A DNA stretch of 64,000 nucleotides from a bacterium (GCA_024231955.1 JAAEPZ010000538.1:766551-830550), one strand, 5' to 3'. Counted from the first letter of the stretch, positions 11,822 through 23,209 are shown. The notes: a model not told the origin generated them from the sequence alone. Program-made: numbers and translations.

Positions 11822-12805
11822 ATGATCCCCATCGACAAACTTCAGGCGACCGGCGCTTTTCTGTTGGCTCAAGAGCGGGTTCGTCTTCTGCTCCACAAAC
11901 ATCCCGATGGCGATACCCTTGGTTCCAGCCTGGCTCTGGCGCGCTTCCTCAAGCAGAAGGGGATGGATATTGGGGTCTTTGGTCCGTTTCCGCGAGCGGC
12001 AAAGTTCGATTTTTTGCCGGGCTTCGAGGAGGTCGAGTCCGGTGTAGACGAGATCCGCAATCCCGAATATGCCGATACGCTCTACGTGGTTGTCGATAGT
12101 ACGGGGGTGGATCGGACGGGCTTCGAGGAGGGGGACTTCAAACGGCTGTTGCGCCTCGATCATCATATCGGGGGCAGTCGGTATAGCGAGTACGATCTGG
12201 TGGATACCTCCGCCGGAGCGGCGGCTCTGATTATCAGCGATCTCCTCCATGCCCTGGACAAGGATGGCATAGACGCCGGCACCGCCACCTGCCTCTACAC
12301 CGGTCTGATGACCGATACCGGCGGTTTCCGCTACACCAATACCAACAGCCATGTATTCCACTCCGTGGCTCGTCTGGTCGACCAGGGGGCGAGCCCGGCT
12401 GAGGTCGCCACGATGGTCTATGACCGTCGGAATCCCTCCTATCTGCTGCTGCTCAAGCGGGCGCTGGAATCAATCGAGTTCCATGCCGAAGGCCGCCTGG
12501 CCATGTTGACGCTCACCGCCGCGGGTCTTCCCGAGGAGGCGTTGCTCTATTTTGGGGAGGATGATTTCATCAACCTGCCGCGCGGCCTTGCCCAGGTGGA
12601 GGTTGTCGTCCAGATGAAGCTGGTCCCCGGTGAAAACTGGAAAGTCGGCTTCCGGGCCAAAGGCAAGGTCAATGTGCAGGAGATCGCCACCCATTTCGGT
12701 GGTGGAGGACACTTCTCGGCAGCAGGTTGCGAGATCGATGGCGAGTTGGAGGAGGTTCGACACCGTGTGCTGACGCGGGTCCTTGAGGCTATCTCAGCAT
12801 CTTGA
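11822..12805 (+). CDS. nrnA: DHH-family phosphoesterase, NrnA-like (oligoribonuclease / pAp phosphatase).
   Basis: DHH motifs HKHPDGDTLGS and LDHHIGG, plus a DHHA1-like C-terminus with GGGH (FGGGGHFSAAG). Confidence 0.75.
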   Translation: MIPIDKLQATGAFLLAQERVRLLLHKHPDGDTLGSSLALARFLKQKGMDIGVFGPFPRAAKFDFLPGFEEVESGVDEIRNPEYADTLYVVVDSTGVDRTGFEEGDFKRLLRLDHHIGGSRYSEYDLVDTSAGAAALIISDLLHALDKDGIDAGTATCLYTGLMTDTGGFRYTNTNSHVFHSVARLVDQGASPAEVATMVYDRRNPSYLLLLKRALESIEFHAEGRLAMLTLTAAGLPEEALLYFGEDDFINLPRGLAQVEVVVQMKLVPGENWKVGFRAKGKVNVQEIATHFGGGGHFSAAGCEIDGELEEVRHRVLTRVLEAISAS

Positions 12806-12941
12806 TCCCGGCCGGTTGCCTGCAGGCTATCTCCTTTATGGATTCGGATAGTGATCTATTGCTCCATATTGTCGTCAATCGTTGACACTGTGGTGCCGAT
12901 AAGTTACAATCTGGAGACCATGTCTACAGGAGAGTACCTCA

Positions 12942-14708
12942 GTGTCTAAGGATTCGGGAAACGACAAGCCGACATTGCCCAAACGATCACCGGCTCTCGA
13001 GAAGCTGCTGGGGCGTTCCGTCGATTCCTCGCCAAAAACAGCCACATCCGGCGGCGCCGCCGCCACACCAGCCCCAATTACCGAGACCAATGCCGCTCCC
13101 AAACCCGGACAATCCGCTTCCGGCAGCAGTGTCTGGGAGCTTGAGACTCTCCGCAATCGCCTGAAGGAGACTCAGGAGGAGATCGCTCGGCTCCGCATTA
13201 TTGATGACTCTCATAGCCGTTTGCTCACCCTTCTCGAGGCGAACGCCGATTTTCTGGTCTCGGCGGATCCCGCCAGGCTTCCGGATCGGATTCTCCAGAT
13301 CGGGCTGGACCTGGTCGGCGCGGAGCGCGCCGCGTTCTTCCGCATCAGCAAGGAGGGGGCGCTGAATCTGGGACAGGTGCGACCTGAAGGTGCAACTTTC
13401 AGCTCGATCAGCCACTCGGTCGTACGGGACGCGCTTCTGGGGAAACGGACGATCGTTCATCAGGGACAGTCCGCCCAGGTGGGTGCCGAGCGGCAGAGCA
13501 TTATTGACCTGGATCTGGAAACAGTAGTCGCTACGCCACTTATGACTGCCGAACGTCAACTGGGTATCCTTTATCTGGACGGTTCGCGCGTTGGTGCTTT
13601 TACCGCCGCCGATGTTCCTGTGCTTGAGATCTTCACCCGTCTCGCAGCTGCGGCAATGGTTCGCCTCGAGGAGTTGCAGGAGGTGCGTGAGGAGAAGAGT
13701 GAGCTCAAACAGGAGAACATGGAGCTGAAAAGCGCCCTGAGTGACCGCACCCGTTTCGGTAATATTCTGGCGGCGAGTGCCGGCATGAAGAACGTGATCG
13801 AGCAGCTCAGACGGATGTGCCGCTATCGCTCCACCGTGCGGATATTCGGGGAGACCGGTACGGGTAAGGAGTTGATTGCCAGGGCTCTGCACAACGAAAG
13901 CGCCTGGGCGCGGCGGCCATTCGTTACCATCAACTGTGGTGCAATCCCTGAAGCGCTGCTTGAGTCCGAGCTGTTTGGACACGAGAAGGGCGCCTTTACC
14001 GGTGCCGATACGGCCAAGGCCGGGCTCTTCGAGCAGGCCGACGGCGGAAGCCTGTTTCTGGATGAGATCGGTGATATGCCCGCCATGTTGCAGGTCAAAC
14101 TGCTTCGGGTCTTGGAGAATGGCGAGGTGCGCCGCGTCGGGGGGAATCGGGTGAGTCGTGTCGATGTGAGGGTTATCGCTGCATCGCACCGCAACCTGGA
14201 GGAGAGGGTTCGGGATGGGGAGTTCCGGGAGGATCTGTTCTATCGACTCAATGTCCTCACCGTCAGTCTGCCGCCGTTGCGGGAGCGTCCCGAGGATGTT
14301 GAGCTTCTTGCCGAGTATTTTCTGAAGAGATACGGGGAGAAGATGGGTCAGGACTGCCGCGGCTTCACACCGGCGGCGATCGGACGTTTGCAATCGGAGA
14401 CCTGGCCCGGCAACGTGAGGCAGCTCGAGAAGTGCGTTGAGAGGAGCCTGGCTCACTGGGAGGGGCGACGGATCATGGAGGAGCACCAACTGATGCTCGA
14501 CGCAGGCCCCCTCACCGATCGACCGGATCTGCAGGCGACCCAGTCAAGTCCGGATGAGAGTCTGAAGCAGTTCGTGACCAGGATGGAGAAAGACAAGATC
14601 GGTCAGGCGCTGAAACAGGCGAAGGGCCGTAAAACCACTGCCGCAGCCAGACTTGGCATCTCCCGGCAGTACCTACATCGCAAGATCAAGGATCTGGAGC
14701 TCGAATAG
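12942..14708 (+). CDS. Sigma-54-dependent transcriptional activator (disordered N-term, GAF sensor, AAA+ sigma-54 interaction domain, Fis-type HTH).
   Basis: Walker A GETGTGKELIARALH, GAFTGA motif ESELFGHEKGAFTGA, Walker B GGSLFLDEIGDM, arginine finger region, C-terminal HTH AAARLGISRQYLHRKIK. GAF-like block upstream. Confidence 0.85.
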   Translation: MSKDSGNDKPTLPKRSPALEKLLGRSVDSSPKTATSGGAAATPAPITETNAAPKPGQSASGSSVWELETLRNRLKETQEEIARLRIIDDSHSRLLTLLEANADFLVSADPARLPDRILQIGLDLVGAERAAFFRISKEGALNLGQVRPEGATFSSISHSVVRDALLGKRTIVHQGQSAQVGAERQSIIDLDLETVVATPLMTAERQLGILYLDGSRVGAFTAADVPVLEIFTRLAAAAMVRLEELQEVREEKSELKQENMELKSALSDRTRFGNILAASAGMKNVIEQLRRMCRYRSTVRIFGETGTGKELIARALHNESAWARRPFVTINCGAIPEALLESELFGHEKGAFTGADTAKAGLFEQADGGSLFLDEIGDMPAMLQVKLLRVLENGEVRRVGGNRVSRVDVRVIAASHRNLEERVRDGEFREDLFYRLNVLTVSLPPLRERPEDVELLAEYFLKRYGEKMGQDCRGFTPAAIGRLQSETWPGNVRQLEKCVERSLAHWEGRRIMEEHQLMLDAGPLTDRPDLQATQSSPDESLKQFVTRMEKDKIGQALKQAKGRKTTAAARLGISRQYLHRKIKDLELE

Positions 14709-14716
14709 AGTGAAAT

Positions 14717-14734
14717 CGTAAACATGTGTTTACG
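14717..14734. promoter_or_regulatory. Perfect 18-bp palindrome CGTAAACATGTGTTTACG, a candidate upstream activator sequence for the adjacent sigma-54 activator.
   Basis: Read directly from the sequence. It lies about 200 bp upstream of the sigma-54 promoter at 14931. A half-site-like TAAACATG recurs at about 14882. Confidence 0.35.
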
Positions 14735-14930
14735 AAGTGTCGCCGATTTGATGCCTCCCTAACTCTCTGTAATATATGTCGATATGGTTGACGTTGTTTT
14801 TGTGTCGCCTGTAGTTTCCATACTCAGGTTGGAAGTAACTCGCTCCCGACAATTCCTGAAAATCATAACTCCCAGTAAATAAACATGATAGCCCCTGAAG
14901 GCGCTATGAGGAAGTCCGCTCCGTGATAAC

Positions 14931-14945
14931 GGCATCCGGGTTGCT
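14931..14945 (+). promoter_or_regulatory. Sigma-54 (-24/-12) promoter.
   Basis: GGCATccgggTTGCT gives GG-N10-GC with TTGC at -12, matching TGGCAC-N5-TTGCW. It sits about 50 nt upstream of the first small-peptide ATG. Confidence 0.5.
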
Positions 14946-14996
14946 ATAAGGCCAGTGTCAGCTCACTACAAAATAACGGAAATCGGGAGGTTTCAA

Positions 14997-15074
14997 ATGT
15001 TGATCTTCAGTCTGTTCGCCAGCGCTTCCGTCTTCACAGCTTTCCTGACCAAGACCTGGTGGGACATTTCCTAA
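14997..15074 (+). CDS. 25-aa hydrophobic peptide, copy 1 of a tandem paralogous array.
   Basis: MLIFSLFASASVFTAFLTKTWWDIS. GGGAGG lies 7 nt upstream. The copies differ mainly by synonymous or conservative changes. Confidence 0.5.
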   Translation: MLIFSLFASASVFTAFLTKTWWDIS

Positions 15075-15128
15075 GCACAGTTAACGTGGGCTGCGGCCCG
15101 GTACCCGAGTAAAACAGGAGAAGTTAAA

Positions 15129-15206
15129 ATGTTGATTTTCAGTCTGTTCGCAACCGCTTCGATCTTCACAGCTTTCTTGACCAAGACCTGGTGGAACATC
15201 GGTTAG
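15129..15206 (+). CDS. 25-aa hydrophobic peptide, copy 2.
   Basis: MLIFSLFATASIFTAFLTKTWWNIG. AGGAGAAG RBS. Followed by a GCGGGCC-tgag-GGCCCGC hairpin. Confidence 0.5.
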   Translation: MLIFSLFATASIFTAFLTKTWWNIG

Positions 15207-15266
15207 ATGACTGTATGGCGGGCCTGAGGGCCCGCAATACTTGACCACATCATTAGGAGGTTTCTC

Positions 15267-15344
15267 ATGTTGATTTTCAGTCTGTTCGCAACCGCTTCGA
15301 TCTTCACAGCTTTCCTGACCAAAACCTGGTGGGATCACAGCTAA
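15267..15344 (+). CDS. 25-aa hydrophobic peptide, copy 3.
   Basis: MLIFSLFATASIFTAFLTKTWWDHS. AGGAGG RBS. Followed by a CGCGGC-tgaa-GCCGCG hairpin. Confidence 0.5.
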   Translation: MLIFSLFATASIFTAFLTKTWWDHS

Positions 15345-15399
15345 GGAAGTTTACGCGGCTGAAGCCGCGGTCCCGGTAGGGATTACCCGCAAGTGTGCG

Positions 15400-15435
15400 A
15401 TGTTGATTTCGGTTCGCCATACCAGCTTTGCATGA
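15400..15435 (+). pseudogene. Degenerate fourth copy of the small-peptide gene.
   Basis: ATGTTGATTT...TTCGC...AGCTTTG retains blocks of the unit but carries deletions and an early stop (MLISVRHTSFA). Spacing from copy 3 (55 nt) matches the array period. No RBS. Confidence 0.35.
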
Positions 15436-15630
15436 ACTGTCTGAAAAATAACCCAGTGGTATGGTGCCCAGATAGATGGAATTCGCTTCATCAAATCCAT
15501 TTGATTCGAGGAGGCGAAGACGGGTTGGGAAGGAGCCCGACCTCGTCCGGCGAAAGCCGGGAATCTGAAATGTAGAGGCTCGTGATGATGGAGAACCGGC
15601 CTTTCCTTGTTGCAGGGAAAGGTCGGGCTC

Positions 15631-15686
15631 TTGTGTTGCTGTATTTGTGACTTGAAACTTGTGTTGCTGTATTTGTGACTTGAAAC
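15631..15686. repeat. Perfect tandem direct repeat, 2 x 28 bp (TTGTGTTGCTGTATTTGTGACTTGAAAC).
   Basis: Read directly from the sequence. It lies immediately upstream of a small ORF. There are no spacers, so it is not a CRISPR array. Confidence 0.8.
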
Positions 15687-15701
15687 AATGGAGGGGGCGG
15701 T

Positions 15702-15809
15702 ATGGATGCAATACGGAGAATCAAGGGCTCTGGTTTGCTGATGTTCATGCTCAGCCTCCTTGATTTGCTCACCACGGCGCCGGGCAAGACTCGGTGGTGT
15801 GATGAGTGA
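15702..15809 (+). CDS. 35-aa small hydrophobic peptide (MDAIRRIKGSGLLMFMLSLLDLLTTAPGKTRWCDE).
   Basis: GGAGGGGG SD 7 nt upstream. Its C-terminal K-T-R-W-C-D echoes the K-T-W-W-D of the 25-aa peptides. GC hairpins follow. Confidence 0.35.
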   Translation: MDAIRRIKGSGLLMFMLSLLDLLTTAPGKTRWCDE

Positions 15810-16035
15810 TACCGAGTAACCGGGTCTCCCATCCCCTGGTTGCGAGGGGAGGGGCTGCACCTTTTGGTGTGGCCCCTCTTTAATTTCGGCCAATGTTTGT
15901 GAAAAAAATAACGATACTGGTGAATATCTCTTTTCATAACCTAAAGTGAATATATCGCTTGCAAAATAATGCTAAGAGTGATTATTCTCCCCTCCGCCCC
16001 GAGATTGTGGGCATTCTCCCAGGTGGATTTGTCTG

Positions 16036-16344
16036 ATGAGCTTTCTGTTTAGTATCGCCAAAAGGACCAGGCGTCAGATCAGGAAACAGTCCGGACGAGG
16101 TACTGGCGTACTGTCGCTGAGTCATCTCGGTGTCACCTTTGCTGCTTCAATTGCTCTCTACACTCTGGCTGGACTGTGGCTCGACAAGAAACTGGGTGTA
16201 TTGCCGCTGTTTACTTTGTTGGGTGCGGCGGTCGGTACGGTCGGTGGCTTTCTCTGGCTTTATCGCGAAGTTCTCAGAGCGGAAGAGCGGAATATCGAGG
16301 GAAGTGACGACAACGAGGTGGGTGAGGAGCAGGTGGAGAGTTGA
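16036..16344 (+). CDS. AtpZ/Atp1-like small membrane protein, first gene of the atp operon.
   Basis: 102 aa with an arginine-rich N-terminus followed by two TM helices, immediately upstream of atpI and atpB. Confidence 0.55.
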   Translation: MSFLFSIAKRTRRQIRKQSGRGTGVLSLSHLGVTFAASIALYTLAGLWLDKKLGVLPLFTLLGAAVGTVGGFLWLYREVLRAEERNIEGSDDNEVGEEQVES

Positions 16345-16760
16345 GATCACTTCAGGTTCGTTTCCTTAATGCAATATTGGCACTTGCTTTGCTGTCAGCG
16401 CTAACGGTTGCATTTGTTCAGTCATTTCTGCCGAGTGTGAAGCTGTGGGGCAGTTGGGCAGGCATCGGTGTTGCTGTAGCAAGTGTGGCAGTCAGTTTCT
16501 ATCAACTGAAACGCTCGCTATCCGCCGCTCACCTGGTGTTCTTCAGAGCCTTTGTTTTCAGCATGGCGTTGAGAGTGTTGATGATCGCTACGGCCAGTTT
16601 GCTGGTTTGGCAGACGACGAATTGGGATCTCAGACAGTACTTGATCCTTTTGGGTTTGACTTATCCGCTCTTCCTCATGATTGAGGCGTACTTTCTGTGG
16701 CGGATGCTTGGCGTGTCGGCGGGTGAAAATCCCACCCGGTGCGCGGAAAATAAGGAGTGA
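16341..16760 (+). CDS. atpI: ATP synthase protein I (AtpI)-like membrane protein.
   Basis: 139 aa, four hydrophobic helices. Its position between the atpZ-like gene and atpB, with 4-nt overlaps, indicates translational coupling. Confidence 0.55.
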   Translation: MRSLQVRFLNAILALALLSALTVAFVQSFLPSVKLWGSWAGIGVAVASVAVSFYQLKRSLSAAHLVFFRAFVFSMALRVLMIATASLLVWQTTNWDLRQYLILLGLTYPLFLMIEAYFLWRMLGVSAGENPTRCAENKE

Positions 16761-17671
16761 GGTTCTTGTTTCCAGCGAGCGCTTTGGCCAATGAGCACGG
16801 ACATGAGGCTGTTCAGGATTCTCTGCACGCAGCATCGACGCATGCCGTCGAAAGCGCCGAATCCCTGGATCCCATGGGGCACATCCTTAACAGCGATTTC
16901 TGGGAGATCACACATTCGCTGAGATTCAACATCAGCGAGTTGATCCCCATTCCGACCTTTCACATCGGATCACTCGAAGTGAACCTCGCACCCTCGCTGC
17001 ATGTCATCATGCTCTGGTTGGCGGGGCTGTTGCTCTTCCTGCTGCTGCGCAAAGCCGCGAGCGCGGAGGAGAACATGGTGCCCAAAGGGCGGCTGCGCAA
17101 TTTCTTCGAGGCGATCATCCTCTTTGTGCGGGACGAAGTCGTCTACAATACGATGGGCGAGAAGACCGGCCGACGTTTCCTCCCCTATCTGCTCACGGTT
17201 TTCTTCTTTATCCTCTTCATCAACTTGCTGGGGTTGATCCCGACCATGGCCACCGCCACGGGCAACATCAACGTCACCGCCACTTTGGCAATACTGACGT
17301 TCATGGTCACCCAGGGCAGCGGCATCAAGCAGAACGGTTTCTTCCAGCACTGGAGGAATCTCGTTCCGCCGGGCGTCCCCTGGCCGTTGATGATCATCAT
17401 GATCCCCATCGAGATCATGGGGATGTTGACCAAGCCCTTCTCGCTGACCATGCGACTTTTCGCCAACATGATCGCGGGCCATATCATCATCCTGTCCTTT
17501 TTCGGACTGATCTTCGGCATGTCGCTGAAGCTGTGCGCCCTGGCGGCGCTGCCCTTTGCCGGCGCCGTCGCCATCAGCGCTTTTGAGATTTTTGTCGGCT
17601 TTCTGCAAGCCTTCATTTTCACGTTCTTGTCGACGATTTTCATAAATCAGGCGGTCCATCCGGAACATTAA
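16757..17671 (+). CDS. atpB: F0F1 ATP synthase subunit a.
   Basis: Conserved stator arginine region LSLTMRLFANMIAGHIII. Polytopic membrane protein. The start is uncertain (GTG at 16757 or a later ATG). Confidence 0.85.
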   Translation: MRFLFPASALANEHGHEAVQDSLHAASTHAVESAESLDPMGHILNSDFWEITHSLRFNISELIPIPTFHIGSLEVNLAPSLHVIMLWLAGLLLFLLLRKAASAEENMVPKGRLRNFFEAIILFVRDEVVYNTMGEKTGRRFLPYLLTVFFFILFINLLGLIPTMATATGNINVTATLAILTFMVTQGSGIKQNGFFQHWRNLVPPGVPWPLMIIMIPIEIMGMLTKPFSLTMRLFANMIAGHIIILSFFGLIFGMSLKLCALAALPFAGAVAISAFEIFVGFLQAFIFTFLSTIFINQAVHPEH

Positions 17672-17968
<297 letters not shown>

Positions 17969-17983
17969 AAGAGGGGTTGAGCA

Positions 17984-18550
17984 ATGGGTGACCTGTTCTT
18001 ATCAGGGCTTCCTCTACTTCTCAACGCCGCCGACGGCGCGGGACACGGGCGCAAGTTCGACTTGCTGGCCGTGGATCCCGGCCTGATCTTCTGGACGGTT
18101 CTGACCTTCGTGTGTCTGCTCCTCCTGCTGCGCAAAACCGCATGGGGACCGATCATCGAGGGACTCGACCGTCGCGAGGAGAGTATCCGCAACTCCATCA
18201 ACGAGGCGGAGAGAGCCAACGAGGAGGGCAAGAAGCTGCTCGAGCAGCAGCAAGCCGAGTTGGCCACTGCCCGCCAGGAGGCGCAGAAGATCATCGAGAA
18301 GGGTACGGTTGCCGCCAAGGCCATGCGGGATGACATCATCGCGAAGGCCCAGTCGGAAGCCGGGGACCTGCTCGAAGCGGCCCGTCATGAGATCCAGTTG
18401 GAAACCGGGAAAGCACGCGACGCGCTCCGCAAGGATATCGTTGGGCTCAGTCTCGATATCGCGGGCAAGGTGCTCGAACGTTCTCTCGATGACTCCGATC
18501 ACGAACGCCTCGCAAAGGAGTTCATGGCACAGGCGGACAGGATCCAATGA
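17984..18550 (+). CDS. atpF: F0F1 ATP synthase subunit b.
   Basis: Single N-terminal TM helix, then a long charged coiled-coil (EAERANEEGKKLLEQQQAELATARQEAQKIIEKG). Confidence 0.85.
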   Translation: MGDLFLSGLPLLLNAADGAGHGRKFDLLAVDPGLIFWTVLTFVCLLLLLRKTAWGPIIEGLDRREESIRNSINEAERANEEGKKLLEQQQAELATARQEAQKIIEKGTVAAKAMRDDIIAKAQSEAGDLLEAARHEIQLETGKARDALRKDIVGLSLDIAGKVLERSLDDSDHERLAKEFMAQADRIQ

Positions 18551-19101
18551 GGAATGCGGCAATAGCCAGAGTCTACGCCACCGCCCTGCTTGAGCTGGGC
18601 GGGGAACGGAATCAACTTGAGGAGTTGACTCGCGATCTCGATGCTCTCCGCGAGATTGCGGGCGAGGATATTGGCTTTGTGAAAATGCTGGAATCGCCTG
18701 AGCTCGGATTCGACCAGAAACGGCGAATCCTGGAGAAGGTGGTCGCTTCGGCGGAGACTGAGCTCACGCTCCGTTTCCTGTTGCTGCTTGTGCGCAAGCA
18801 TCGTGAAGCGGCTCTGTACTCGATCATCGAAATGTTCCACCAGCTGCGTGATGAAAAGGAGGGACGTCTTCGTGGACGTCTCCGCGCGGCCCGTGGACTT
18901 GAATCCGCTCGGGTCGCGGAGCTGGAGGCTGCGCTCAGTCGCTCCTCCAAAGCCACCGTGCTGCTGGACGTGGAACAGGATGAAGAACTAATGGCCGGGA
19001 TGGTGCTCCACCTGGCTGATCTGACGGTGGACGGCAGCCTGAAGATGCGCCTGTCGCGCATGAAGGACCGCTTGCTGTCGGCTGAAATGGGAAAGGAATG
19101 A
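18547..19101 (+). CDS. atpH: F0F1 ATP synthase subunit delta (OSCP).
   Basis: 184 aa starting [10 protein letters not shown], between atpF and atpA with a 4-nt overlap. Confidence 0.85.
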
Positions 19102-19102
19102 G

Positions 19103-20614
19103 ATGAAGATCCGCCCGGAAGAGATCACGACCATCATCAAGTCTGAGATTGCGGGTTTCGAGGGTGGCCTGGAGGTCGAGGAGACCGGGCAGGTCCTCGA
19201 GATCGGCGACGGCATCGCACGTATCTACGGCCTCTCCAAATGCATGGCCGGCGAGTTGCTGGAGTTCTCCAACGGCACCATGGGCATGGCCCTGAACCTG
19301 GAAGAGGACAACATCGGCGCCGTGCTCATGGGAGATTTCCAGGAGATCAAGGAGGGCGACAGCGTCAAGCGCACCGGGCGGGTTATCTCCGTGCCGGTGG
19401 GCGAGGGGTTGCTCGGCCGCGTGGTGACGCCGCTCGGAGAACCTCTGGACGGCAAGGGGCCGATCCAGAGTGAGAACTTCCGCCCCGTGGAGTTCCTGGC
19501 GCCCGGCATCATCGAACGTCAGCCCGTGAAGGAGGCGTTGCAGACCGGCCTCAAGCCCATCGATTCGATGACGCCCATCGGGCGCGGTCAGCGTGAGCTG
19601 ATCATCGGCGATCGCAGCACCGGCAAAACCGCCATCGCGCTGGACACGATCATCAATCAGAAGGACACGGATGTGATCTGTGTCTACGTGGCCGTCGGCC
19701 AGAAGGCCTCCACCGTGGCGGCCGTGGTTGAGAATCTCCGCAAGCATGGAGCGATGGACTACACCATCGTGGTTGCGGCTACCGCTTCCGATCCCGCGCC
19801 GCTGCAGTACATCGCGCCCTATGCCGGTTGCGCCATGGCCGAGTACTTCATGTACGAGAAGCATGGCCACACGCTTTGCGTTTACGACGATCTTTCCAAG
19901 CAGGCCGTCGCTTATCGGCAGCTATCCCTGCTGTTGCGGCGCCCGCCGGGACGCGAAGCGTTCCCCGGGGACGTGTTCTACCTGCACAGCCGCCTGCTCG
20001 AACGCGCGGTCAAGCTGAACGACGAACTGGGTGGCGGCAGCCTGACTGCGCTGCCGATCATCGAAACCCAGCAGAGTGATGTGACCGCCTATATCCCGAC
20101 CAATGTGATCTCGATCACGGATGGCCAGATCTTCCTCGAACCCGATCTCTTCAACCAGGGTGTGCGTCCGGCGATCAATGTCGGCATCAGCGTCTCCCGC
20201 GTGGGCGGCAACGCCCAGACCAAGGCGATGCGTTCGGTTGCGGGCAGCCTGCGGCTGACGTTGGCCCAGTACCGCGAACTCGAGGCTTTCGCCCAGTTCG
20301 GTTCGGAGCTGGACAAGGCCACGCAGGCCGCTCTCTCCCTTGGTGAGCGGATGGTCGAGGTCCTCAAACAGGATCAGTGGGTGCCGATGAGTATGGCCGA
20401 ACAGGTGATGATCATCTACACGGGGCTCAACGGGCATCTCAAGGATGTCGAGGTGGAGCAGGTCAGAACATTCGAGGAGCAGTTCCTGAGCTTCATGAAG
20501 GCTCAACATCCCGAGGTCGGCGCAGCGATCGCGGCCGAGGGTGTGATCAGTGATGAAACCGAGTCGAAACTGAAGTCGGCTCTCACGGAATTCCTGCAGC
20601 AATTCGCGGTATAG
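19103..20614 (+). CDS. atpA: F0F1 ATP synthase subunit alpha.
   Basis: Walker [28 protein letters not shown], and the characteristic alpha C-terminal region. Confidence 0.95.
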
Positions 20615-20621
20615 GGGACCC

Positions 20622-23209
<2,588 letters not shown>

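Follow-up and report, generated by a model that had tools for sequence, protein, structure and literature searches.

The interval 15535-15700 of a 64,000-nucleotide (nt) stretch of DNA (JAAEPZ010000538.1; the whole stretch is called the window here) is a spacer within a conserved small-protein operon of an uncultured Krumholzibacteria genome. Upstream of it lies a tandem array of genes for peptides of about 25 amino acids (aa) ending in TKTWW, and downstream an open reading frame (ORF) for a 35-aa protein with a K-x-R-W tail. The spacer carries a strong hairpin, H2, which has a homologue at the same position in all loci compared. We put the probability at about 0.5 that the interval is an intercistronic spacer in which the conserved hairpin serves as a leaky terminator and/or as a stabiliser of a 3′ end, and in which the additional helices and a tandem repeat are relics of duplication. 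A first-pass annotation of the same DNA had described the interval as a riboswitch- or attenuator-like leader with mutually exclusive helices.

A hairpin between the peptide genes and a small ORF

The elements of the spacer and its immediate downstream neighbour are as follows (all on the + strand; bp, base pairs).

15522-15543: local hairpin H0′ (GGGUUGGG / CCCGACCU), −12.9 kcal/mol; its 3′ arm doubles as the 5′ strand of the long-range helix
15531-15543: 5′ strand of the long-range helix, which pairs with 15620-15632; the surrounding segment 15533-15560 aligns to the reverse complement of H2
15547-15560: hairpin H1, CCGGC-GAAA-GCCGG, −10.6 kcal/mol, pair probability about 0.98
15582/15585-15650: mini-ORF GUG AUG AUG ... 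UGA (MMENRPFLVAGKGRALVLLYL), running through H2, with GAGG 6 nt before the first AUG
15596-15626: conserved strong hairpin H2, 14 bp, −23.6 kcal/mol, or about −29.6 kcal/mol with the basal extension 15582-15639; followed by the U-rich tail GCUCUUGUGUUGCUGUAUUUGUG
15620-15632: 3′ strand of the long-range helix; it shares bases with the 3′ arm of H2 and with the beginning of the tail
15625-15640: sigma-54-like site GGGCTC-N5-TTGCT, 2 mismatches to the consensus
15630-15685: 28 bp duplicated perfectly in tandem (2 x 28 bp), in the stretch that separates H2 from the Shine-Dalgarno site, Tandem Repeats Finder score 114
15685-15704: Shine-Dalgarno site GGAGGGGG (15690-97), 4 nt upstream of the 35-aa ORF, and the start codon of that ORF
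15702-15809: 35-aa ORF (MDAIRRIKGSGLLMFMLSLLDLLTTAPGKTRWCDE), member of a small conserved family ending in AP-x-K-x-R-W

Loci of relatives were fetched around eight orthologues of the activator gene that lies upstream of the peptide operon, and by a pattern scan of metagenomes; the latter returned 15 loci, five of them true (L038, L039, L045, L048 and L051) and ten chance matches. The comparative set consisted of 11 distinct loci (the window, L027, L029, L032, L033, L035, L036, L038, L039, L052 and L053), in which five closely related, alignable spacers make up group A; a further set of relatives, which does not include L053, is called group B. In all 11 loci the arrangement is DHH phosphoesterase, activator, sigma-54 promoter, one to five TKTWW genes, spacer and atp operon. 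A small ORF and a terminator stand between spacer and atp operon in the window, L027, L029, L032, L033, L035, L038, L039 and L052; L036 and L053, both deep lineages, have the same gene order without the small ORF.

An H2 homologue precedes the small ORF, or closes the peptide array, in 11 of the 11 loci, so that a stable G+C-rich stem-loop is found at the 3′ end of the array in conserved position, as would be expected of an intercistronic hairpin. In the window its pair probability exceeds 0.99, and the stem, which had been given as an 11-bp hairpin at 15596-15626, is present with 14 pairs. Across lineages the loop has between 3 and 16 nt, and the hairpins of the window, L036 and L038 contain G-U pairs, which only the + strand accommodates. 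Both features point to a hairpin that acts as RNA rather than to a palindrome in the DNA. Searches with a covariance model and with patterns found no further copy of H2 in the 64-kb window, as a dispersed palindrome of the repetitive extragenic palindromic type would have left.

The hairpin has features of a terminator. In a consensus scan it was the only terminator-like match in 14600-16400, and its tail in the window contains 5 T in a span of 8 bases, the run being interrupted (GCUCUUGUGUUGCUG). In L036 and L053 the homologues have clean U-tracts (tails UUUUUCUCUU and UUUCUGUCC, respectively) and no K-x-R-W ORF follows; judged by these sequences, the hairpin looks like the operon terminator there. 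The relatives that bear the ORF have only 20-35 nt and no repeat between hairpin and Shine-Dalgarno site, compared to 75 nt from hairpin to start codon in the window. Since such a distance leaves no room for a promoter, transcription of the ORF in these relatives must pass through the hairpin.

The 35-aa ORF is genuine, and it is conserved. ORFs of 35-45 aa with a strong Shine-Dalgarno site follow the spacer in nine of the 11 loci (the window and eight homologues), and their products share a conserved C-terminal half with the invariant pattern L..L.LL..L...P.K..W. The product of the window is a tiny membrane-type protein without a match in Pfam or NCBIfam; exact look-ups gave no record for it, nor for AtpZ and AtpA. 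A profile of the family found only eight matches among 5.8 billion proteins, none of them functionally named; the single match of the window's protein among 1.84 billion representatives was judged spurious. The first-pass annotation had seen in its C-terminus an echo of the 25-aa peptides. The two indeed have the K-x-x-W tail in common, and only that; homology of the genes at the DNA level was dismissed, the similarity not exceeding that of shuffled sequences. In L027 (7415-7450) the 8-mer that begins the 35-aa ORF of the window, ATGGATGC, stands right after the conserved hairpin; the ORF that it opens has 11 codons and ends in a UGA overlapping with the UUG at which the main ORF starts. The other group A loci do not have it, and it may be a coincidence or the trace of an older start site.

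Folding, conservation and signs of local duplication

The description of the region as structured, untranslated and located upstream of a genuine small ORF was borne out by the ORF homologues in eight other loci and by folding. The fold of the 186-nt region is more stable than that of shuffled sequences (z = −3.1; 0/200 shuffles as stable), and the predicted ensemble is dominated by H0′, H1 and H2. The GNRA hairpin H1 is present exactly as described. Hairpins at the equivalent position in relatives have other stems (GGTCGAC-GAAA-GTCGACC in L029, GGTCGGAA-GCGA-TTCCGGCC in L027), and their loops, GAAA, GCGA, GCAG or 6 nt long, are not consistently GNRA; at least one stable hairpin follows the last TKTWW gene in all lineages.

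The long-range pairing of GCCCGACC (15535-42) with GGTCGGGC (15621-28) that the first-pass annotation proposed also exists, and is longer than claimed. It consists of 13 contiguous pairs between 15531-15543 and 15620-15632, ten of which are perfect Watson-Crick pairs (15533-42 with 15621-30). Its probability in the thermodynamic ensemble is 0.001. No counterpart was found in the ten relatives, where fractions of 0.08-0.75 of the shuffled sequences gave a helix at least as stable. Of the proposed either/or folding, the non-random alternative helix in the window thus stands, while its low probability and its absence from relatives speak against the folding itself.

Conservation of the spacer as a whole is limited. 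The first-pass annotation had assigned the region to no Rfam class, and rightly so: neither the window nor seven related loci gave an Rfam match at the gathering threshold, and relaxing the limit to E ≤ 10 in 14600-16200 yielded noise only. A covariance model (R1) built from the five group A relatives scored 113-177 bits on its own members and recovered only H2 in the window (7.8 bits, E = 2.6). The group A spacers have a four-hairpin consensus, in which only 3 of 43 pairs show a compensatory change. Local alignment of the window leader to every relative stayed within the range of shuffled sequences (z ≤ 2.4). Two shared motifs, AUGUAGAGG (with L036) and CGUGAUGAUG (with L053), were discarded, as they were not above chance in local alignment. 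By sequence comparison, all that is shared across lineages is the strong hairpin, the hairpin or hairpins after the last TKTWW gene and, in nine of 11 loci, the small ORF.

Masking of the ribosome binding site was not evident either. In nine loci the accessibility of the Shine-Dalgarno site and start was not consistently below that of controls with shuffled upstream sequence. A long-range anti-Shine-Dalgarno helix suggested by RNAalifold for group A was rejected, its duplex energy being no better than with shuffled upstream sequence and the accessibility of the Shine-Dalgarno site being unchanged.

The mini-ORF with its GAGG is present and runs through H2 as described. It starts 11 nt before the hairpin, with no regulatory codon run ahead of H2 and a Leu-rich end after it. 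The peptide differs in every lineage, and neither its length nor the position of its stop codon is conserved. In three loci the frame is fused to the main ORF, in others it stops before it, and in group A the Shine-Dalgarno site of the leader ORF is weak. The missing codon run and the unconserved peptide make the interpretation as a leader-peptide attenuator unlikely.

Several signs of local duplication were found. The array holds three intact peptide genes and a decayed copy, the 28-bp repeat is perfect, and 15533-60 aligns to the reverse complement of H2 with a score of 24, which was reached by 1 of 1000 shuffles; this segment looks like a decayed, partial and inverted copy of H2. There is also a likeness between the Shine-Dalgarno region and the 3′ arm of H2. 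Repeated duplication of pieces of a near-palindromic hairpin would automatically create extra strands complementary to the hairpin arms, which provides a neutral origin for such pairings. The strong Shine-Dalgarno site and the perfect duplication ahead of 15702-15809 had both been correctly recognised, the ORF being conserved and the repeat specific to this genome, with no other copy in the window or in 53 fetched loci. A sigma-70 promoter created by the duplication was also considered and dropped: none came up in a scan, and the best match by eye was 8/12.

Weighing of the readings

In the reading we favour, the spacer would belong to a sigma-54-dependent operon in which tandem TKTWW peptides of about 25 aa are followed by the 35-aa K-x-R-W protein. 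H2, at the end of the peptide-gene array, would work at the level of RNA, as a leaky intrinsic terminator and/or as a hairpin that protects the 3′ end, by terminating decay or by marking a processing site. Messages for the TKTWW peptides would then accumulate, and the small ORF would be present only on read-through transcripts. The GAAA hairpin H1 would be one more tetraloop hairpin of the kind that follows each cistron. The long-range helix, the similarity of the Shine-Dalgarno region to the 3′ arm of H2, the decayed fourth gene and the 28-bp repeat would be by-products of local duplication and not parts of a sensing switch. The architecture of the operon, its conservation, that of the hairpin and the lack of the other elements in relatives were observed directly.

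A number of points weigh against this reading. Termination, processing and read-through are steps that we infer, and the same holds for the origin of the alternative helices as relics. In group A the hairpin has no U-tract, yet hairpin and 5′ flank (GGAUGUCAUGGCUCC) are almost invariant, and this invariance exceeds the constraint that a plain terminator needs. The long-range duplex has an energy of −29 to −30 kcal/mol, compared to −15.1 ± 2.3 kcal/mol for dinucleotide shuffles of the upstream strand, and 0/300 shuffles were as good; a fold forced to contain it is only 4.5-5 kcal/mol less stable than the minimum. Between the 5′ arm of H2 (15592-15608) and the Shine-Dalgarno and start region (15685-15704) there is complementarity worth −20 to −22 kcal/mol, a value matched by 0/400 and 1/500 shuffles, and group A shows a weak tendency to the same pairing (fractions 0.03-0.17), which group B lacks. 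Finally, an AUG-initiated frame crosses the hairpin in ten of 11 loci, starting 2-24 nt before it. The chance of such a frame is 0.25-0.49 per locus, which amounts to about p = 0.05 over five independent lineages.

Most of these points would be accommodated by a lineage-specific, bistable hairpin-swap switch controlling translation of the 35-aa ORF, possibly driven by the mini-ORF and possibly pseudoknotted, an alternative that we regard as possible, if doubtful. In its ON state H0′, H1 and H2 would be formed and the Shine-Dalgarno site would be free. In the OFF state 15531-43 would capture the 3′ arm of H2 (15620-32), and the freed 5′ arm (15592-15608) would pair with 15685-15704. What drives the swap could be ribosomes that pass through H2 on the mini-ORF, in a way that resembles translation-coupled attenuation of the pyrBI/erm type. 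Such a switch would explain why both alternative pairings are non-random and why the forced alternative fold lies so close to the minimum. It is in line with the recurrent upstream AUG frame and with the complementarity kept in group A, with the specificity of the 5′ arm (−20 kcal/mol for its own start region versus −5 to −17 kcal/mol for 17 other start regions of the window), and with U15623, which forms a G-U pair in H2 but an A-U pair in the long-range helix. However, the long-range helix is missing in all ten relatives, its equilibrium probability is minute, and the accessibility of the Shine-Dalgarno site is the same as in shuffled sequences. The two alternative helices cross, so that their joint formation requires a pseudoknot, and the capturing strand lies upstream of a nearer competitor, which is kinetically unfavourable. 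The recurrence of the upstream AUG is marginal, the mini-ORF is conserved neither in peptide nor in length or stop position, and the alignment of 15533-60 as an inverted copy offers the neutral origin discussed above.

An internal start of transcription was considered as well. H2 would then terminate fully, and the 35-aa ORF would be expressed from its own sigma-54-type promoter at 15625-15640 with the 28-bp duplication as leader; we judge this improbable. With 2 mismatches to the consensus the site is no worse than the promoter at 14930, which has as many, an activator gene is nearby, and the longer distance from hairpin to start codon in the window would give room for it. Against this, the site is conserved in no relative, its −24 element deviates (GGCTC), and it has TG where ten of 11 true promoters have GG before TTGC. 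No TGTCGCC repeats occur within 800 bp upstream, and sites with ≤3 mismatches are rarer in the window than expected by chance (178 versus 250). Still less probable is a function of the inverted repeat as a protein-binding palindrome in the DNA, for example an operator. The nearly palindromic arms, matches of the covariance model on both strands and the strong conservation of the arm sequence CCGGCCTTCCC in group A would suit an operator. The spacing of the arms, which ranges from 3 to 16 nt between lineages, would not, and the G-U pairs would be mismatched if formed by the opposite strand or as part of a palindrome in DNA. At this position the arms of group B and of L053 are wholly different in sequence, and the motif of the candidate activator sites, TGTCGCC, is another one and lies upstream of the promoter. 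Least credible is the metabolite-binding riboswitch, or classical trp/leu-type leader-peptide attenuator, of the 35-aa ORF, which is largely refuted by the comparative data. In its favour are a fold better than that of shuffles and the presence of an alternative helix, of a mini-ORF and of a U-rich tail behind the hairpin. That interpretation is contradicted by the lack of any Rfam match, by the scarce covariation even within closely related group A, and by the lack of a multi-helix core kept across lineages or of Shine-Dalgarno masking above shuffles, the predicted upstream anti-Shine-Dalgarno helix being no better than these. In addition, the mini-ORF begins just before the hairpin, with the deficits in codons and conservation already described, and the downstream gene encodes a tiny membrane-type protein that is neither biosynthetic nor a transporter.

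Several known systems are comparable. In the puf operon of Rhodobacter a stem-loop follows pufBA, and nisA and other genes for small precursor peptides are followed by a hairpin. H2 resembles these intercistronic leaky-terminator or decay-terminating hairpins in being a stable G+C-rich stem-loop after short, presumably highly expressed peptide cistrons and before a downstream cistron, in its weak or absent U-tract, and in a conserved position with drifting sequence. It differs in the unusual invariance of hairpin and 5′ flank in group A and in the additional, statistically significant partners of the hairpin arms on both sides in the window. With canonical Rho-independent terminators it shares a 14-bp G+C-rich stem, the U-rich stretch behind it and the match in the consensus scan, as well as homologues with clean U-tracts in L036 and L053. 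Unlike them, it has an interrupted tail in the window and is followed by a co-oriented ORF with a strong Shine-Dalgarno site and no evident conserved promoter. In attenuation of the pyrBI type, which is coupled to translation, a leader ORF is read through the terminator hairpin. The short ORF through the hairpin in ten of 11 loci and the 5′ arm that can alternatively pair with the downstream Shine-Dalgarno site recall pyrBI and erm/cat attenuation. Here, however, the leader peptide is unconserved and has no known stalling motif, the recurrence of the ORF is only marginally above chance, the gene is not one for pyrimidine synthesis or resistance, and the ground state leaves the Shine-Dalgarno site free, the opposite of erm. 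Riboswitches and cis-regulatory leaders in Rfam likewise have a structured 5′ region before an ORF and competing helices, but the spacer matches none of them, has no aptamer-like core across lineages and no masked Shine-Dalgarno site, and its alternative helix occurs in one genome. Most likely, the RNA element is of a common type, an intercistronic hairpin that works as a leaky terminator or as a stabiliser.

The operon and its meaning

Further features of the operon in the window are listed here.

12942-14708: gene for a GAF/AAA+/HTH sigma-54 activator, upstream of the peptide operon
14930-14945, + strand: sigma-54 promoter CGGCAT-N5-TTGCT of the small-peptide operon, from a consensus scan, 2 mismatches
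14997-15074, + strand: TKTWW peptide gene 1 (MLIFSLFASASVFTAFLTKTWWDIS), then the tetraloop hairpin GGGC-UGCG-GCCC at 15088-15099
15129-15206, + strand: TKTWW peptide gene 2, then the hairpin GCGGGCC-UGAG-GGCCCGC at 15218-15235
15267-15344, + strand: TKTWW peptide gene 3, then the hairpin CGCGGC-UGAA-GCCGCG at 15354-15369
15400-15428, + strand: decayed start of a fourth peptide gene copy (ATGTTGATT...TCGGTTCGCC), local alignment score 27 versus 15.0 ± 2.5 for shuffles (maximum 25 of 500)
15845-15890, + strand: canonical intrinsic terminator of the operon, 16-bp stem, UUUU loop, UCUUUAAUUU tail, −31 kcal/mol

The three 25-aa genes of the window are near-identical (MLIFSLFA(S/T)AS(V/I)FTAFLTKTWW..), and each has a GGAGG ribosome binding site and, behind the gene, a G+C-rich tetraloop hairpin that lacks a U-tract. 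Members of the family, hydrophobic peptides of about 21-27 aa with an invariant C-terminal TKTWW, are encoded in one to five tandem copies in all loci of the comparative set and in L045. The first gene often has the doubled end TKTWWTKTWW, and the coding 15-mer ACCAAGACCTGGTGG is nearly invariant. The decayed fourth copy indicates turnover of the tandem array. L045 has two TKTWW-type genes in another setting (first 520 nt, oriented minus strand): behind them come a hairpin, another kind of small hydrophobic ORF (...TVFTAIAVIALISLIGVLDYFNYYTY) and a putative alpha/beta-hydrolase-like gene. The family may therefore not be tied to the neighbourhood of the atp genes.

About 20 full-length orthologues of the activator were found at 50-65% identity, several of them labelled Krumholzibacteria or Krumholzibacteriota. 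With the activator as query, the genome contigs yielded only distant paralogues (36-56% identity over the AAA+ part), none of them with TKTWW genes. The order DHH phosphoesterase - activator - peptide operon - atpZ/atpI/atpBEFHA (11822-21500 in the window) is kept at this level of activator identity, and the genes farther upstream vary. The motif GGCAY-N5-TTGCW occurs exactly once per Krumholzibacteria locus, always 5′ of the first TKTWW gene (e.g., L027 6973-6987, L029 6950-6964). Two TGTCGCC repeats are located 127 and 192 bp upstream of the sigma-54 promoter of the window (14738, 14803), and promoters of relatives also have repeated (T)GTCGCC / GGCGAC motifs upstream. By their sequence and position, these repeats look like candidate sites of the adjacent GAF-domain activator.

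Terminators equivalent to that at 15845-15890 occur in relatives. The atpZ/I/B/E/F/H/A operon downstream of it has an apparent conserved promoter-like region of its own (GATTATTCT / GACTATTCT). A perfect match to the sigma-54 consensus, TGGCACTTGCTTTGCT, at 16378-16393 within the start of the atpI-like ORF has no exact equivalent in relatives and is probably a coding coincidence (L-A-L-A-L-L). Directly before the terminator, in the 3′ untranslated region of the 35-aa ORF (15786-15879), lies a C-rich stretch, UCUCCCAUCCCCU, with a weak, sub-threshold likeness to the small RNA RsaE/RoxS (E = 0.91, with 21.6 bits where the gathering score is 79). In the same position (U)CAUCC motifs, likewise C-rich, are found in relatives, as is CCCCCGG in a spacer loop. 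Overlapping the spacer, 15393-15575 could encode 60 aa from a GTG start, with CxxC-like cysteines; this ORF has no match in Pfam or NCBIfam and no counterpart in relatives, and is probably not a gene. Long ORFs on the minus strand across the region (15351-15893 and others) translate into low-complexity, repeat-derived sequence.

In the searched protein databases and literature neither peptide family has an annotation or a description. The TKTWW peptides did not turn up there in any form, Pfam and NCBIfam included, and concatenated peptides gave 0 matches. The operon around the hairpin is consequently the more interesting discovery: it is conserved, wholly unannotated, belongs to an uncultured phylum and lies beside the genes for ATP synthase. 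How much of the TKTWW peptides is made in proportion to the K-x-R-W protein would depend on the hairpin. If the alternative pairings were functional, the spacer would be a compact example of translational switching, and a true switch would represent a new cis-regulatory RNA that sets the ratio of two undescribed small-protein families under the control of a GAF-domain sigma-54 activator.

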